From contig CM000435.1 in assembly GCA_000165345.1 (NCBI GenBank), positions 192,001-256,000 on the forward strand: a stretch of 64,000 nucleotides of DNA. Reading direction: 5' to 3'. The position numbers and the translations under genes were made by a program. The notes beneath the pieces were generated by a model. The model was given only the letters and a program-made list of their open reading frames with translations. It was not told the DNA's origin and made no database searches. Shown in pieces: positions 21,340 through 30,800 of the stretch (positions are counted from its first letter, which is position 1; every line of letters begins with the position of its first letter).

Positions 21340-23577
21340 TTGGTGATGAGTCTTGGTAACAATGGTAGTGGGGGAATCAATAATGGAGGATATGAAGATA
21401 TAAGATTTGGTAATAAATCCGGTACCCATAATATGGTATTTCAAGATCTAAGTGGTAAGCATACAGGATATCTTGAAATTCAACAAAATAATCATAATTC
21501 TGCTCAAATAATAATGGATGATCATGAAATAGGAGGAGGTTCTTCTCAAAGAATGGATCAATTGGGAGGTATAACGCAAAGTAATAGTAATACAGGAAGC
21601 TTAGCTGGAAGTCAGTCCTCAATAGGGAGTCAAAGCTACCAAAGCCATAGTTTGAATTCCTCATCTACTTCTCTTCCAAATTCAAATTCAAATTCAAATT
21701 TGAACATGATAATGATGAGTTCTAATTCTGTTCAAGGTCATAATCATGGCCAGAATCGGAATTCAAGTTCCCAAATTCTTCGAAGTTCTATTCATCCTCA
21801 AAATTCCCATTATTACAATAATCCAAACTTGAATAGTTCTGTTTCCCAACCAGGCCCATCTCAATTTCAACATCAGAACAATCATATGCAACAAATTCCT
21901 CAAAATGTGTACCAGCTACAAATGCAAAACCCAGTTAAGTCTCAACAATCATCTCGATCTCACAGTGTGCCTCCATCTTCATCCCCATCTCCTTCGTCGT
22001 CTCCAACTCTCCAGGCCTCTCAGTTGAATGATTACCCTTCAAAAGGTTCATACTCGCAAAGCTCGCAGGTCCTTCAACATTCTCCGTCTCCTTCGCCCCA
22101 GTATTCTCAATCTTCCCATTACTCCCAGCCTTCTCGCAATTCTCATCCATATCAGCTTACGCAGCCGTCTCAGATGTCCCAACAAACTCAGTTACAGTCC
22201 TCTCAACCACATAAGCAGATCCAATTTTCTCAATCTTCTCAGGCGTTTCAGCTTACTCAGCCATCCCAACCGTCTCAGCCTTCTCAGCCTTCTCAACTTA
22301 CTCAGCCTTCTCAGCCTTCTCAGCCTTCTCAGCCTACTCAATTTTCCCAACTTACTCAGCCTTCTCAGCTTACACAACCTTCTCAGCTCACTCAACCTTC
22401 TCAGCTCGCTCAAGCATCCCAACTCTCACAATCATCTCAGCTTGCTCAGGCGTCTCAGTCGTCTCAACAAAGTTACTTAGCTCCTTCAAACCCTTTAAGG
22501 AACTACAATATTCCTATAGAAAAGGTGGTATGGGACTATTTGCATTTCTTGTATAGACAAAACACAGGAGTTTTGGGATATTTGGCTCCTTATATAGACG
22601 AATCATTTAATATCGGTAAATTTCATTGTTTGGTAACGGAATTCTGCAAAAGACAAAGGGTATCGAAGGATGCATTGATCATAAACTCAAAGAATTGGTT
22701 TAAAGAATGCCTAGATCAAAGAGAGGCTACTCAGAGCGTGGAATTGACTATAGAGTGCGAAATAAAGAAGTATGTTGAATCTAAGATCAAACGCTATGAG
22801 GATTTAGGCTTTAAACTAGAGTCTGATAAGATCTCCAAGTTTTATTGTAATTTGGTACCATACATGATCAAAAATCTTTGGAGAAGATTGGAAAATGCAA
22901 GTTATCAAAGAGTTGACTGGTCATCTAGACAGTTCTTAGGAAGTGAAGTAGACCCCAAATTTTGCAATTATGATATGGTTAGCAGAATTATGAGACTTAA
23001 CAGCAGCAATTCTGATGAATCTAATAGGGATAATAGTGAGACGGTATCTGGAAATAAGGCAATCAGGTCTCAGGATAATGATAAGGAATTATCATCCAGG
23101 GAAAAACACGAAGGATCTGACTATATGATGGATTCAAACTCAGATTCTGGTAACAGAAGGAGCCATCAAAGTATTATGAATGTTAAAGCAAATATTGATG
23201 ATCATCATGACCATTGCATAAATGAAATTGATAATTCTCAGAGTCATGGCCAAAACTACAGCCAAAATCAAAATCAAGATGATATTCAAATGAATAAAAG
23301 AAGGAATCCAGATGAACACGATGAACAGACAAAAGAGATGGTAATTGTTTCCAGGACTCAGAAATGGCTCTTAAGAAACGTTAAACTTGAAGATTTTAAG
23401 TACTTAATTAGAGTTGATCAGCTTAGAGAAGAGAATATATTGAGAAATTCTGCTCCATCAAAGCATAAGTCCAAGTCGAAATCAAGATCATCTAGTTCTA
23501 ATACCTCAGTAAGACTACCTAGGAAGACTCAGAATGTTATTTTAGACTACATTAACTTGTGTAATTTTAAAATTTAA
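21340..23577 (+). CDS. Hypothetical Ser/Gln/Pro-rich low-complexity protein, 745 aa, with a tandem QPSQ(L/P)(T/S) repeat array and a non-repetitive C-terminal domain
   Basis: Long ORF. The internal 9/18-bp tandem repeats (cagccttct / cagcttactcagccttct) are in frame. No family recognised for the C-terminal 350 aa. Confidence 0.55.
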   Translation: MVMSLGNNGSGGINNGGYEDIRFGNKSGTHNMVFQDLSGKHTGYLEIQQNNHNSAQIIMDDHEIGGGSSQRMDQLGGITQSNSNTGSLAGSQSSIGSQSYQSHSLNSSSTSLPNSNSNSNLNMIMMSSNSVQGHNHGQNRNSSSQILRSSIHPQNSHYYNNPNLNSSVSQPGPSQFQHQNNHMQQIPQNVYQLQMQNPVKSQQSSRSHSVPPSSSPSPSSSPTLQASQLNDYPSKGSYSQSSQVLQHSPSPSPQYSQSSHYSQPSRNSHPYQLTQPSQMSQQTQLQSSQPHKQIQFSQSSQAFQLTQPSQPSQPSQPSQLTQPSQPSQPSQPTQFSQLTQPSQLTQPSQLTQPSQLAQASQLSQSSQLAQASQSSQQSYLAPSNPLRNYNIPIEKVVWDYLHFLYRQNTGVLGYLAPYIDESFNIGKFHCLVTEFCKRQRVSKDALIINSKNWFKECLDQREATQSVELTIECEIKKYVESKIKRYEDLGFKLESDKISKFYCNLVPYMIKNLWRRLENASYQRVDWSSRQFLGSEVDPKFCNYDMVSRIMRLNSSNSDESNRDNSETVSGNKAIRSQDNDKELSSREKHEGSDYMMDSNSDSGNRRSHQSIMNVKANIDDHHDHCINEIDNSQSHGQNYSQNQNQDDIQMNKRRNPDEHDEQTKEMVIVSRTQKWLLRNVKLEDFKYLIRVDQLREENILRNSAPSKHKSKSKSRSSSSNTSVRLPRKTQNVILDYINLCNFKI
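22246..22462 (+). repeat. In-frame coding minisatellite of about 24 degenerate 9-bp units (CAGCCTTCT / CAGCTTACT = QPS/QLT) inside the S/Q-rich gene
   Basis: Read directly. The antisense and alternate-frame ORFs the track lists here (22028..22480, 22192..22422) are repeat artefacts. Confidence 0.8.
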
Positions 23578-23726
23578 TTTAATTTAAAAAAAAAGAAATT
23601 GGATTTATAATAGGCGCCAAATTCCACTAAAGATTTTGCATGCATGCATTTTTATATATATTATAGATACCCACTTATATAGTAGAAAAAAAAATTTAGA
23701 CAAATTAAAGTTTTATATATTTATGA

Positions 23727-25238
23727 TCATCTTATTACATCATTAATTACTTGTTTATTTACATGCAAATACAAGAATAGGCTTGAAATACTGAGTGAGG
23801 AAATAGTTAAGGTTAGTATTATATAGATCTTAGATAATCTTGAGACAAATATTAAAAAGAAAAGCTTGTAGATATTGATAATCAAGTCATTTGAAAGTAC
23901 TTTCCACAAAAAATAGGTAGATATATTAAATTCATGTGTCTCTTTATGTTTATTTAAAATGTAAAGACTATATAAAATGTTTTCAAGGGAAAACAAGTCT
24001 AGGTAAAATGCTAAATCTGCAAGTTGAAGAATCTTGAATGGCTTTATTTTGGTTTGATTCTGCTTGAGTTGTGAGGTATATTTCGTTAAAGCTACTCTAA
24101 ATGAGTCACTAGCATTAAAATGAAAGTAGGAAATCAGTCCTTGGGTAAAGAAAGTTTGGGAAAACTTGCAAAATAAAAAATTGTCTTGGTGTACACTTGG
24201 AAGAGCTGAAAGAAAAGATGTTAAGGAAACGGATAATGATGAAGATGATGATGAGGAAGAGGAGGGAAGATCTGAGAGAACTTGACTAGACAAATGGCAA
24301 TCATCTTTTTTTTTACTTCTTTTTTTACTGTGAATATCCATACTTTGGTCTCTACCAATATCTTGTTCTTGGGATTTGGTTGAGTGGAATGATGATGAGG
24401 ACAAAGGGGAAATTTGTTGATTCACTTCTTGGCATCCAAAATTATCTTGATTTTGATAAAGTTCTGCTTTGATTGTCGAATAATAGGAAGAGGAAGAAGA
24501 TGAGGAAGAAGAATGAAGATTTTGAGAACCAAAAGATGAAGTTTGTCCAGGATTTTGAGTGTTATTAGTTATCCAATTAAAACTAGAAGTTATATTTCCA
24601 GCAGCTAGAAAAGATCTAACTTGGATGACCAAGAAGCTTAAACGAACCAAAAAAAACAAAACTGATTGAGAAAGTTTTAAATACTGGGATGATAAGTAAC
24701 TGAAAAATATAATGTCAACAATTTCATGAAATCTACTTACGACACCTATTATACTGCACCAAGTATTATATATTCCACTAAATTGATTATGGTTAAATAT
24801 ATCATTTTGAAAGAATAGAAATTTACATAAATACTTTTCTTTATTAAATAGAAAAATTGAATAAATAACTCCAATTGTGTAAACTAATAAATAAAAGCTC
24901 CATGAATTATATATAAATATGTTTGATTTTATTAAGATGGTATCAAATTTATTATCAAAATCCAAAATATTTCGCGAGTTTCTTTGTATAATTTGTATTA
25001 ATAAAAAAACTAATATATTAAAAGAATATTTATAAAACAAAATCTCACCTAATTTATCCATTATTTCCAAATAACTAAAAAGATCAATCTTCATTTTTGG
25101 AACTGATGTCCAGTTATCTAAGTTTATGTTTGGATCCTCATTTAATTCTGAAATAATTATCTCATCAAGTACTGTTGAGAAGCTCAATTCATGGCTTCTT
25201 TCAGAATCTGTCAAAAATTCTTGATAGTTATCAATCAT
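23727..25238 (-). CDS. Hypothetical multi-pass membrane protein, 503 aa, with Ser-rich linkers
   Basis: Complete ORF with several hydrophobic 20-25 aa segments (FNILVFLLIQII, FYLLVYTIGVIYSIFLF, IYIILTLTISSLSISSLFLYL). E2F-like TTTTCCCGCCA and ATGCATGCATAC lie 270-340 bp upstream. Confidence 0.5.
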   Translation of the reverse strand: MIDNYQEFLTDSERSHELSFSTVLDEIIISELNEDPNINLDNWTSVPKMKIDLFSYLEIMDKLGEILFYKYSFNILVFLLIQIIQRNSRNILDFDNKFDTILIKSNIFIYNSWSFYLLVYTIGVIYSIFLFNKEKYLCKFLFFQNDIFNHNQFSGIYNTWCSIIGVVSRFHEIVDIIFFSYLSSQYLKLSQSVLFFLVRLSFLVIQVRSFLAAGNITSSFNWITNNTQNPGQTSSFGSQNLHSSSSSSSSSYYSTIKAELYQNQDNFGCQEVNQQISPLSSSSFHSTKSQEQDIGRDQSMDIHSKKRSKKKDDCHLSSQVLSDLPSSSSSSSSSLSVSLTSFLSALPSVHQDNFLFCKFSQTFFTQGLISYFHFNASDSFRVALTKYTSQLKQNQTKIKPFKILQLADLAFYLDLFSLENILYSLYILNKHKETHEFNISTYFLWKVLSNDLIINIYKLFFLIFVSRLSKIYIILTLTISSLSISSLFLYLHVNKQVINDVIR

Positions 25239-25651
25239 TGTTATGCTAGCTAAGAAGCTAGCTTACTTGTCTTATGTTAGATTTTCTGCTTTCCCTAATT
25301 TCACACACTTTTTTTCAATTAATTTGCCAATTTTCTTATTTTTTGCTCAATGTTTAACCTGAATAACCATATTTATTTTAACAATTAGCCAATTTTGTTG
25401 AGTAAAACTTATTCTTATGCCTTAATCTAAAGTTAACCAGTAATTATTTATCTTTCTTATGCGCTTTTATTATATATTTTATTTTCTCCATATTTTTTAT
25501 CATTTTCCCGCCATACATGCAAATTTCCGGCGCACAGCCCCCCACGAGACGAATTTTGAAAGAAAAATGCATGCATACAAATTTCAGAGAATATTCAAAG
25601 AAAAAAAAAATGAAAGCTTCTAAAAAGCTATTTTAGTTTACAGAAGACAAT

Positions 25652-27063
25652 CTACGATTTAGATGACAATGAAGTAACTCCTGGTAACAACTTCCCCTCA
25701 AGTAGCTCTAAAGAAGCACCTCCGCCTGTAGAAACATGAGATACCTTATTAGCTGATCCACATTTTTCAACTAATGATGCAGTATCACCTCCACCCACAA
25801 TTGTGATTGAACCTGACTCTGTTGCTGCAACAAGTGCTTCAACCATGGAGCGAGATCCTTTTGAGAATTTCTCCATCTCAAATACACCTGGAGGGCCATT
25901 AGCAACAATAGTTTTTGAAGAAAGAATCAATTCTTTAAAAGAATTGGATGATTCTGGACCAATGTCAAGACCCATCCAACCATCCGGAATACCTTCAGAA
26001 TCCTTAATAATTCTAGCGTTTGCTTCATTAGAAAAGTTATCTGCAATGACAAAATCACTAGGTAATAAAATCTGAACATTCCTCTCCTTGGCTGTATCCA
26101 TAATTTCTTTAACAATTTTGGCTCCTTCTTCATCAAATAAAGATTTGCCAATTTGCATATTATCCATCACTTTTTTGAAAGTGAAAGCCATTCCACCTCC
26201 AATAATCATTCTGTCAACTTTTAAAAGCAAATTCTTAATCAACTGAATCTTATCAGCAACTTTGGCTCCTCCCATGATTGCTAAGAATGGTCTAGTGGGA
26301 GATTCTAAAGCTTTACTGAAATATTCCAATTCTTTTTTCAACAACAAGCCAGCAACTTTTGGTGTTAAATCAACACCAACCATTGAACTATGTGCTCTGT
26401 GTGCTGTTCCAAAAGCATCATTCACATAAATATCGCCTAATGAGCTTAAAGACTTTCTAAAAGCTTCAATTTCTTCAGGAGTTGCCTTTACTTTTTCACC
26501 ATTTTCATTTACACCTTTGCCTTCTTCTGCTAAGTGGAATCTCAAATTCTCCAGCAAAATAATGCTTCCTTCTGCTGGATTCTTGCATAACTCCTCTGTC
26601 TCATTACCTACACAATCCTTTGCAAAGATTACTGATTTACCCAATAATTCCTCCAAAATTGGAACTATTACAGTTAATGAGTATTCCATCTTTCTTTGTC
26701 CATCTGGCCTACCCAAATGAGAAGCCAAAACTACACTCTTTGCTCCGCACTCTAAAGCATATTTTATGGTTGGAAGACTTGCAATTATTCTAGTTTTGTC
26801 TGTAACTTGCCCATTCTTTACTGGTACATTCATATCTACTCTAATGAATACTCTTTTGCCTTTTAACTAAAATCATTTAACATAATAGGGAGAAAAAAAA
26901 ATGAAAATTAGTTAGTTATTCATTCAATATTTAATTAAAATATGTTGTAAAAACAACATTGATTACTTTTTTCTCTGTTTATCCTCCAAAAAAATCCTTT
27001 CACAAACAAATAACTTACCTCTGATGCAACATCAGTTATATTAAGCTTTTTTGAAAGATCCAT
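25652..27063 (-). CDS. PGK: Phosphoglycerate kinase, two exons: join(complement(27019..27063), complement(25652..26866)), 419 aa
   Basis: Exon 2 carries the PGK signatures ([26 protein letters not shown], hinge and C-domain). The ORF-track Met at 26833 lacks the conserved N-terminus. Upstream on the minus strand, ATGGATCTTTCAAAAAAGCTTAATATAACTGATGTTGCATCAGAG|GTAAGT encodes [22 protein letters not shown] acceptor then joins to [19 protein letters not shown], reproducing the yeast PGK N-terminus [28 protein letters not shown]. Confidence 0.85.
26867..27018 (-). other. PGK intron (152 nt; GTAAGTTATTTG...GATTTTAG on the minus strand) after codon 15
   Basis: A phase-0 junction restores the conserved PGK N-terminal motif. 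Without splicing, the upstream in-frame sequence hits TAG 12 codons before the ORF-track Met. Confidence 0.8.
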
Positions 27064-27227
27064 TTTATCCAATGATTATACAAAATCAAAATACAAACTT
27101 TGAAAAAAATTCTCTATAAAATAAATAGAATAGAAATTGAAACCAAATTATTTATCTATTTATTATTTGTAATAATAAATATCCAACCACTATTGCAATG
27201 TACACAGATTTCGCATGCAACATGGCT

Positions 27228-27264
27228 GTGGGGAACACGTGTACTATATTCACACGTGTGGGGA
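27228..27264. promoter_or_regulatory. Twinned G-box/E-box element (GTGGGGA-ACACGTGT ... ACACGTGT-GGGGA) 165-200 bp upstream of the PGK ATG
   Basis: CTGTGGGGAACACGTGTAC (27226-27244) and CACACGTGTGGGGAG (27251-27265). Two palindromic ACACGTGT cores lie 17 bp apart, each flanked by GTGGGGA in mirror arrangement. Confidence 0.4.
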
Positions 27265-27478
27265 GAATATTTCTACTAAAATTCGAGCACTACAAGTTTT
27301 TCTTTCCTATTTTCTTTCTTTCTTCCTTATACCATCAATTCTATAATTACTAACTACAATCTAACTTTATATTTAATTCAAAAACAATTACAATATTTAA
27401 ATAAACTTGAATAAAATCATTCGAGTCTACCTATAAAGAAATCCTTGAAAACTTTTGCTTGTTTTAAAATAACAAATG

Positions 27479-27491
27479 TTTTGGCGGGAAA
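27479..27491. promoter_or_regulatory. Canonical E2F site TTTTGGCGGGAAA about 415 bp upstream of PGK
   Basis: Exact match to the E2F consensus TTTSSCGC/GGCGGGAAA. Followed by CTTGCGCC. Confidence 0.4.
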
Positions 27492-27849
27492 CTTGCGCCT
27501 CGGTTAGAAATTATTTTTAATAAGAATTAATTTATAAGTATAGAAAATCAACATTATGAAATTAGAAATGCACTAGCTTGTTGAACTGAATAAGTAAGTG
27601 CAGAGAACTCTGCTTTTTACAGGTGTTAAACTTCACACCTATGCTTATTTAGTATGGTATATAGTGCTAAAATAGCAATTTGCAAGTAGATTGCAAAGAC
27701 GATAATAGAACCTATATTAAAGTAAGATTTCGAATTTAATATGGTACTTGAGTATCGTACAGATATGAAACATGCAAAATGGTAGGTAAATAAGTATAAA
27801 AAAAATAGTTAATTGCTTTACTAATTTATTATTATTATTATTATTAGTA

Positions 27850-30800
27850 TTAGATGGATAAAGCGAGAATAGGTAGATTAGAGATTTCAATGATTTCTTT
27901 TGAAATTTGATCTTTCAAGTATTTAACTTGAAGCATAAACTTGTGTTCATGATTTTGTTGATTATAAGTTGTGACAAATTTTCTGGAATTTATATCATAG
28001 GAATTGATAATTTTGTTCAGTAATTTAGATTTGGAAAAAGAGTAGTTTTCAATTGAGAAATTTGAAGAATTCAAGTTAAGAGATTCAGTATCAGAATTGC
28101 TGGATATAATTGATCTAATTATAAGTAATTTTACCAAATTAATGATTTGCTTATTAAATATTCCAGAGAACTTGTTCAAATTATCTATATTATCAAAATT
28201 ATCAAGATAAGATTCAATATTATTGAATGTTCCAGTAATTATTGAAATCTTGACCAAATTACAAAGGCTTTCGATATCATTGATATTATTAAAATTCATA
28301 GATGAAATATAATTTTGAAAATGAGTATTGATATTATCAATATTTAAATTCTCAATACCAGTAAATATTTGGAGTTGTTTAATAATAGCATCCAGTATAT
28401 TATTTCTATATTCTGTTGATATATTATCAATACCATTTTTCATATTGTTGAATATTTTTGTGTAAAAATGAGTTAGTAAAATAGGGAAAACTCCTATTTG
28501 GTTTTCTCTAATATATGAATTTTCTAATGTATATACTCTGTAAATTGATTTACTACAAACTAAAATGCAAGTCTCCATAGATAATTTTCCAAGAATCTTC
28601 TGTGAACAGTAGTAATGAATATATATTGGAATATAACTTTGTGTATTAAATATGCAATCCTTTCTATAATTCTGTATAATTTCATGAGATTTGCTCCAAT
28701 TTTGTTCAGAGTCTTTAACAAATTCTAAAGTCTCTTTTAAACTTTCGTTTTCATCACCACCTTTATTTTTGTTCTTTTGTTTATCTTTTTTAGAATTGAT
28801 TTGAGATAATTCTAATTTACCATGAACTATCTTGTAAATATTAATCCAAACCTTTCTCCAAAATATGACACTTATTTTTCGATAATTTGTATTGCAAAAG
28901 AGTTTATCCTGCATATTAATGAAATCAAGATACCTACATAGTGTCATTTTTCTTAAACAATATAAATGATAATCGTATTGATCAGTCTTCATAATTTCCA
29001 TTGAGTCCAATAATCTTAAATAATGATCAAAAGTCATCACATAGCCATCGATACTTGAATCAAATAATTCCAGGCTCTTCACAACCCTTTTTTCATACCA
29101 GATCATTTGCAAATTTTTAATTTCTGTTTCATTTGAGGGTACAACTTCGCTTTCTTTTGACTTTGATTGATCAGATATACGCGTCATAAATTTCTTTAAT
29201 AATTCCTTAGCCTCGTTAAAATCTCCATTTTCCAAACAAGCACAAATTGTACGAGTATTAAGGTACCTGTCATTTATATCCATTAATCTCGCATGATCAA
29301 TTGCATTAGTTGCTTCATCAAACCTATAAAGATGTTTTAAAAGTCTTCGTTTAATGTTAAACGTATCAGGTTTTTTATCGTCTAATTTCAAAGCTTTTTC
29401 AATATAATTTAATCCTTCTAATGAAAGGCCCATGCAATCCAAATGTTGAGAATATATTAAATACAGAGTAATCAATTCATCTTTATCAGCTTCGCCTTTT
29501 TCATATAAATTTTCATATTCACTTACAATATTATTCAATTCTGAATGAATCAAGAATTTCTTTTTACTATCCAATTTAATTAAGTAACCAATTAATGATT
29601 TTAAGGCAGTAATTCTGCTCTTAAGTTTACTTTTTAAGTAACTTCTAAACTTTCTAAGAAATTCTTCTCCATTTGAAAATGCTAATTCTATCCTTAAAAT
29701 AGTATCACTATTGGGAAACTGGGACTTCTTTTCCTGGAAAAACTGTTCAATCTTTCTCAAAGAATTTTCATATTCGACCTTTTTTTCTGCTAATTCAGAA
29801 TCTTCATAAATAATAAACTCCAGAACAGGATTTGTAATATTACTGGATGCTTTATAGCCATAATCACATTCAATTTCTTTTGAATTTAATCTTTTATGTT
29901 CCAAATGCTTATTTCTTCCAATATTATCATTAGTTAGCAAAGGAAAGTATATTATACCAGATGTACCTCTTGTGTGGAAAAAGTTTGATCCTATGCTACA
30001 TATTGGAATAACAGCTTCATTTCCAGATGAGACACTTTCATCTTCACTTTCTTGAAGCCTAAATCCTTTGATTTGGTGAGCTGGTAAATGTGGAGGGGAT
30101 AATACCACATTATTTAGAGATTTATTTGTAATCATACAGCCAAATAAAGCATAATCATCATCTGGATAAAGCTCTAGAAGATTATTAAAACATTCAGAAC
30201 ACTCTTTAGTATAATTTTGATTACATTTGACCAAAAGATTCCCCATTATATTGTAGTAATCAGTCTTGTCAAGAATAAACTCTTTGTTTGATCTTAAAAA
30301 GTTATAAGCTTGTTGATATTTTTTTCCATCTAATAATACTCTCACAAAGTATAAAAGTAGTTCGGATCTTTGAAATGGTTCTAAAAATGAGAATAATACT
30401 CCATAATTGTTTTCATCTAGAGATGTCCTTTTTGAATGAATATTACCATTTTCTGAGGAACCAAACTGATCAATAGAAAGTAAACAATTAATTGCTGAGT
30501 TAATATACCCACAAAAATGATTACCAAGTGCAGAGGCTATCCAATTTGTTCTGATATCAGGGCGAATTCTCTTGATCTCGTTTCTGATATCTCTAAAGCC
30601 TTGGTAATTTCGTATTTGAATAAGACATGTTGCCAAATCTCTTAAAACTACCAAATCTTCTTTGTCAAACTTTAAAGCTGTCTTAAAACATTTGATTGCC
30701 TCATTGTAATCAAAATCACCTTTATATAATGTTCCAAGACAATGCCAACTCATTGGGTTCCTCATATTCTGTTTTATTGCTTCTTTTGCACATTCATATG

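Follow-up and report, generated by a model that had tools for sequence, protein, structure and literature searches.

The phosphoglycerate kinase (PGK) gene cgd7_910 of Cryptosporidium parvum almost certainly consists of two exons, with a 45-nt exon 1 followed by a phase-0 intron (27018..26867) that is spliced out to give a full-length 419-aa PGK. Judged from the sequence and its reading frames, the gene spans 27063..25652 on the minus strand of the window, i.e., the whole 64,000-nt (64-kb) stretch of DNA analyzed here. The anatomy of the gene, the homology of its product, the conservation across the genus, and splicing in a sister species were obtained directly in this analysis; C. parvum's own splicing at 27019/26866 is taken from the literature, from deposited spliced models, or by deduction. 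The features of the gene, all on the minus strand, are as follows.

27063..27019, minus strand: exon 1, 45 nt, start codon plus 14 codons
27063-27061, minus strand: PGK start codon ATG, read from the sequence
27018..26867, minus strand: intron, 152 nt, 21% GC, phase 0, GT-AG spliceosomal
27018..27013, minus strand: 5' splice site GTAAGT, from the sequence; the same donor in 7 of 8 Cryptosporidium species
26916..26911, minus strand: ACTAAC, candidate branch point, 44 nt ahead of the intron's 3' end
26907..26887, minus strand: pyrimidine-rich tract TTTTCATTTTTTTTTCTCCCT, upstream of the acceptor
26869..26867, minus strand: 3' splice site (T)AG, the end of TTTTAG at 26872-26867
26866..25652, minus strand: exon 2, 404 codons ending in SLSSKS, plus the TAG stop at 25654-25652

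Gene anatomy and the spliced product

An in-frame TAA (27078-27076) stands five codons 5' of the ATG at 27063, and no further ATG was found 5' of 27063 in the 153 nt scanned upstream. Joining 27019 to 26866 gives the 419-aa product, and the original prediction of a 45-nt first exon and a 152-nt intron with this junction was reproduced base for base in the sequence. That prediction had also described a plain reading frame that starts at a Met without the conserved PGK N-terminus, with the missing motif in frame immediately upstream and preceded by TAG. Both points hold: the intron ends, at 26869-26867, in a triplet that is a TAG stop in the frame of exon 2, and because of this the longest plain ORF opens only at Met 26833 (26833..25652, 393 aa, start MNVPVKNG). 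The 393-aa ORF is devoid of the conserved GKRV-x-x-RVD-x-NVP strand, whereas the spliced product has the motif. Read-through of the TAG at 26869-26867 instead of splicing was considered and rejected: many more stops lie upstream in frame.

The intron contains stops in the exon-1 frame, and its length of 152 nt is not divisible by 3. Its extended splice sites are consensus-like (GTAAGT...TTTTAG), and the GT-AG pattern holds in eight species. From its likeness to the yeast UACUAAC consensus, ACTAAC at 26916-26911 may serve as the branch point, and the AACTAACTAAT run around it is also found in the PGK intron of C. meleagridis. A branch-point-like element and a pyrimidine tract are thus both there in the intron, and we infer that the spliceosome uses them. 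In the model that we propose, transcription would start upstream of 27063, the spliceosome would remove the GT-AG phase-0 intron 27018..26867 and thereby join the 45-nt exon 1 to the main exon, and translation from the ATG at 27063 would yield the full-length 419-aa PGK. The N-terminus would then carry the N-domain's opening beta-strand and, within RVD-x-N, the substrate-binding Asp, both of which are absent from the 393-aa ORF, and the intron itself would be an ancestral one that survived the intron loss of Cryptosporidium.

The spliced 419-aa protein matches the Pfam PGK profile PF00162 over positions 5-379 of 379 (E = 2.4e-149), with a score of 497.9 bits vs a curated cut-off of 27. The 393-aa ORF covers positions 17-379 only, so that positions 5-16 are missing. 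Full-length likeness, including the segment encoded by exon 1, extends to PGKs of other organisms with solved structures, i.e., those of Plasmodium falciparum (1LTK, 3OZA, 3OZ7) and human PGK1 (2XE6 and others). Residues 10-424 of P. falciparum 3OZA align with residues 3-418 of the spliced product (E = 2.4e-166), the alignment to 1LTK also begins at query residue 3, and residues 1-416 of human 2XE6 align with residues 1-417; E is about 1e-165 for both the Plasmodium and the human enzymes. Alignment to another apicomplexan PGK had been suggested as a check on the predicted splicing, and the spliced product matches the Plasmodium enzyme from residue 3 on, with exon-1 residues pairing with LGNKLSISDL of the Plasmodium protein. 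At the junction, Leu16-Lys17 agree with other PGKs, and the GKRV-x-x-RVD-x-NVP strand is found in 90 of 90 aligned eukaryotic PGKs as well as in the solved structures.

In PGKs, beta-strand 1 of the N-domain comes from the KRV..RVD.N segment, whose Asp and Asn contact 3-phosphoglycerate. A protein starting at MNVP would, from this structural knowledge, lack a core strand and the substrate-binding Asp. The 15-codon exon with its GTAAGT donor restores a canonical 419-aa PGK, as had been anticipated, with the Pfam match starting at position 5 and an identical sequence on deposit. By homology, cgd7_910 is predicted to be a glycolytic phosphoglycerate kinase (EC 2.7.2.3) with the corresponding enzyme activity, the conversion of 1,3-bisphosphoglycerate and ADP to 3-phosphoglycerate and ATP, and it is named phosphoglycerokinase or phosphoglycerate kinase in published work (PMC1779779, PMC12604037).

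To gauge the exon-1 peptide against chance, we derived a position matrix from 90 eukaryotic PGK N-termini outside Cryptosporidium (protein search matches) and applied it to every 14-mer without a stop in the six reading frames of the 64-kb window, 55,595 in all. With 17.9 bits, the exon-1 peptide came first; the second best, located elsewhere, reached 10.3 bits.

Conservation, sister-species transcripts and alternative readings

Next, we compared the C. parvum locus with the orthologous genomic PGK loci of seven other species, i.e., eight in all. Exon 1 is exactly 45 nt long in 8 of 8 species, encoding MDLSKKL(N/S)I(T/K)D(V/I)xSE, and the phase-0 junction lies just before L-x-x-KR in every one. 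The only donor to depart from GTAAGT is that of C. bovis (GTATGT), and the acceptor is YAG in all. Across all species pairs, exon 1 shows 145 differences at its 15 third-position sites vs 82 at its 30 first- and second-position sites, a pattern that indicates that exon 1 evolves as coding sequence does. The introns range from 62 to 152 nt, with lengths that often differ by non-multiples of three, and hold exon-1-frame stops in every species.

PGK intron length by species:
C. parvum: 152 nt
C. bovis: 148 nt
C. canis: 144 nt
C. ubiquitum: 138 nt
C. felis: 133 nt
C. meleagridis: 118 nt
Sister species from Logan assemblies: 87 nt
C. serpentis: 62 nt

The sister species also offers a view of the joined product. 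Two intron-less Logan contigs from independent runs, SRR31831729 (1403 nt) and SRR31831728 (1333 nt), carry an uninterrupted 419-aa PGK with 91.9% amino acid identity to the protein of the window. The same organism is also represented by a 9.7-kb genomic contig, SRR18693150, to which they align in two blocks at 99.7%. In the intron-less contigs GATCTGAA is directly joined to TTAAAAGAC; in the genome, the order is GATCTGAA, then GTAAGT...(87 nt)...TTTTAG, then TTAAAAGAC. This junction (...GAA/GTAAGT..87 nt..TTTTAG/TTAAAAG in the sister-species genome) is homologous, base for base, to 27019/26866. Because the intron is missing from the SRR31831729 and SRR31831728 contigs, we infer that they are RNA-derived. 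These two contigs reach 86 nt 5' of the ATG, and transcription therefore starts upstream of exon 1. A further contig, SRR26126307, encodes an uninterrupted 422-aa PGK with 80% identity and the same joined N-terminus, from a more distant Cryptosporidium-like species. For C. parvum itself, no Logan contig was found among the listed sources of the exact 419-aa sequence. The exact 35-nt spliced C. parvum junction had 0 matches in JGI metagenome contigs, a result without weight either way, since that collection is unlikely to contain parasite cDNA.

Alternatives to a single spliced product were also weighed. Met 26833 (MNVP) is conserved in most intestinal species, which would suit a situation in which both PGK forms exist, i.e., in which intron retention or an internal start supplies a regulated, N-terminally truncated PGK beside the full-length one. 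Intron retention is common in apicomplexans, and this counts for such a dual output; nothing direct speaks for it, and we regard it as very unlikely. On an intron-retaining mRNA, the first AUG at 27063 opens a 42-codon dead-end ORF, so that the downstream Met 26833 would be poorly translated. Met 26833 is also not universal, with FNVP in C. serpentis and INVP in C. bovis, and the truncated enzyme would forfeit the core beta-strand and the substrate-binding Asp known from PGK structures.

Still less credible is a gene without any intron, whose real product would be the 393-aa ORF from Met 26833. This is the longest plain ORF at the locus, and a 393-aa product is on deposit for C. parvum (WRK33257.1), C. 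hominis TU502 (XP_666672.1), C. hominis (CUV07069.1), and C. tyzzeri (TRY50248.1). However, such a protein lacks Pfam PGK positions 5-16, including the strand common to 90 of 90 eukaryotic PGKs, and the missing strand is encoded in frame immediately upstream of Met 26833 and conserved in eight species. The absence of an intron would leave a conserved segment of fixed 45-nt length, with codon-type substitution, without a reason, and the spliced PGK transcript of the sister species also stands against it. We therefore consider the 393-aa reading effectively refuted already.

Splicing through another donor or acceptor has next to no probability: between 27500 and 26835, 40 ATG/GT/AG combinations formally give an open frame into PGK, and the deposited C. 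canis model takes an acceptor 6 nt downstream with loss of Leu-Lys, but only the proposed pair links GTAAGT to the pyrimidine-rich TTTTAG acceptor, retains the conserved N-terminus, and fits the orthologous cDNA junction at the homologous site, while the next AG in C. parvum (26861-26860) lies 7 nt downstream and out of frame, and Leu16-Lys17 fit other PGKs. All other combinations were enumerated and rejected. The two-exon structure with the 27018..26867 intron is the reading that we retain below.

Spliced and truncated models in the public record

The two-exon PGK model is already known, and the present result is an ordinary annotation correction, with no discovery and no new biology. An exact-sequence look-up found the 419-aa product on deposit for C. 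parvum as QOY40404.1, WKS78772.1, KAL5367400.1, and UniRef100_A0A7S7RF21; the first three are identical over the 419 aa and share the same exon 1, intron, and exon 2 without any difference. By its accession series, we take QOY40404.1 to belong to the IOWA-ATCC annotation of Baptista et al. Orthologues of 419 aa are on deposit for C. hominis (OLQ17762.1, PPA62796.1, KAL3126879.1) and also for C. meleagridis, C. ubiquitum, chipmunk genotype I, and C. serpentis. In 2015 the two-exon model had already appeared with the C. hominis UdeA01 genome (PPA62796.1, CHUDEA7_910), and later C. parvum records carry it too. For the IOWA-ATCC annotation, Baptista et al. state that RNA-seq backs 100% of the introns (PMC8744675). 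In the supplement of the C. parvum RNA-seq re-annotation (PMC4637869), the pair cgd7_910/CHUDEA7_910 appears only in the orthologue-pair table, with numeric values (0.987 and others), and not among the changed models. Comparison with the annotation of orthologues, another check put forward at the outset, thus returned spliced 419-aa models in several species, beside truncated ones.

The truncated models bear out the earlier warning that a 5' micro-exon invites mis-annotation, as public models of 393, 394, 397, and 404 aa exist across C. parvum, C. hominis, C. tyzzeri, C. felis, and C. bovis. XP_628279.1 (C. parvum Iowa II) is 404 aa long and flagged "partial"; it is exactly exon 2, with no Met. 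Together with WRK33257.1, XP_666672.1, and TRY50248.1, it represents the same locus and the same exon 2 with exon 1 left out, and the truncated models differ in their starts: the 404-aa form begins directly behind the acceptor, the 393-aa forms at the earliest Met inside exon 2. The source assembly of WRK33257.1 (GCA_035232765.1, CP141124.1:255546-262727) is 100.000% identical to window positions 22652-29833 (7,182 nt). Exon 1 and the intron are clearly there in C. felis and C. bovis too, yet their deposited PGK entries (394 aa and 397 aa, respectively) leave them out.

In C. canis, the deposited PGK is 417 aa long, with the downstream acceptor at TTGAAG/GGAAAG (GCA_027243985.1). The upstream acceptor AATAG/TTGAAG would yield the 419-aa form as in all other species; the deposited model points either to two acceptors in tandem or to a slip in annotation.

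The value of the correction is practical only, i.e., truncated PGK records should be corrected. Users of the 393-, 394-, 397-, or 404-aa records obtain a PGK without its first beta-strand, with consequences for expressing the recombinant enzyme, for structural work on it as a drug target, for the design of antibodies, and for phylogenetic and promoter analyses.

Age of the intron and flanking sequences

The PGK intron is an ordinary spliceosomal intron. In the RNA-seq re-annotation by Isaza et al., intron-bearing genes of C. parvum rose from 4.3% to 10.8%, with 688 introns of mean length 99 bp and 22% GC (PMC4637869), and the size and 21% GC of the PGK intron are typical of these. The original remark that introns are rare in this kind of genome should be tempered accordingly: they are confined to a minority of genes, but that minority amounts to ~11% after re-annotation (PMC4637869). 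We also asked whether the intron could host a snoRNA, a ribozyme, a self-splicing element, or another structured RNA, and rejected this on two counts. At E <= 1, a scan of 25300-28000 against Rfam left the intron empty; its sole match is at chance level and inside exon 2 (16.9 bits vs a gathering score of 86). The predicted fold of the intron (MFE -23.2 kcal/mol) has a z of -0.46 vs shuffles, i.e., no extra stability.

An intron at the homologous codon boundary is present in the PGKs of the coccidian Cyclospora cayetanensis and the chromerid Vitrella brassicaformis, where in each case just one GT-AG arrangement yields the annotated protein of the deposited gene model, and the first exons below follow from it. 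As in Cryptosporidium, each has a first micro-exon (14 codons) and a phase-0 GT-AG intron directly before L(S/A)GKRV: Cyclospora has a 42-nt first exon, MLASKLGIEQVADQ, followed by an 829-nt intron, and Vitrella a 42-nt first exon, MLASKIGIEDVADK, followed by a 212-nt intron. Both differ from Cryptosporidium in having longer first introns (829 and 212 nt) and further introns, whereas Cryptosporidium has the first one only. Because phase and position are identical in Cyclospora and Vitrella, shared ancestry of the site is likely, and the PGK intron most likely goes back to the ancestor that apicomplexans and chromerids share. The PGK model of Eimeria tenella (401 aa, start MRVDFNVP) probably misses the same micro-exon.

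The surviving introns of intron-poor genomes are biased to the 5' end of genes, and the PGK intron fits this bias. It is conceivable, though unlikely in our estimate, that intron-poor Cryptosporidium kept the ancestral intron for a reason rather than by chance, namely that an intron near the 5' end raises the expression of this heavily used glycolytic gene (intron-mediated enhancement); the functional part of this idea is speculative.

Upstream of exon 1, two further features on the minus strand were recorded.

27263..27228, minus strand: candidate promoter elements CCCCACACGTGTG and ACACGTGTTCCCCAC, -200 and -179 from the exon-1 ATG
27491..27479, minus strand: E2F-like TTTCCCGCCAAAA, -428 from the exon-1 ATG

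Two CCCCAC boxes lie 30 nt apart upstream of PGK (about -200/-170), each adjoining a ACACGTGT palindrome; CACGTG occurs just twice in the 64-kb window, both times in these palindromes. Five intestinal Cryptosporidium species have a CCCCAC pair with 30-nt spacing at about -160/-200, and TTCCCGCC occurs at -377 to -427 upstream of the PGK ATG in five species. In C. meleagridis, C. ubiquitum, C. canis, and the Logan sister species, the two CCCCAC boxes, one or more CACGTG sites, and TTCCCGCC stand at much the same distances. Judging by these recurrent motifs and spacings, the CCCCAC/CACGTG and E2F-like motifs are probably PGK promoter elements placed relative to exon 1.

A 2007 study of cis-elements described a GGCG-core motif upstream of the ten glycolysis genes that it studied, cgd7_910 among them, and its Table 1 gives a 986-nt upstream region for PGK (PMC1779779). 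By our own arithmetic, 986 nt is the distance from the end of the upstream gene (about 27850) to the old exon-2 start at 26866, so that exon 1 and the intron were apparently counted as "upstream" sequence in that study (PMC1779779). The true intergenic distance to the PGK ATG, again by our own arithmetic, is about 786 nt.

The gene upstream of PGK (~27850 upward, minus strand) encodes about 1056 aa with a NatA auxiliary-subunit/TPR Pfam signature. On the other side lies the ORF 23727-25238 (503 aa), which is serine-rich, apparently has multiple hydrophobic segments, and has no Pfam match on record. The order NatA auxiliary subunit, PGK, serine-rich ORF is kept in the Cryptosporidium loci with enough flank, the C. 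felis and Logan contigs ending before one neighbor. In the short spacer 3' of PGK, upstream of the ORF 23727-25238, we observed TGCATGCA (25568) and GGCGGGAAAA (25505), which probably constitute the promoter of the 503-aa ORF.
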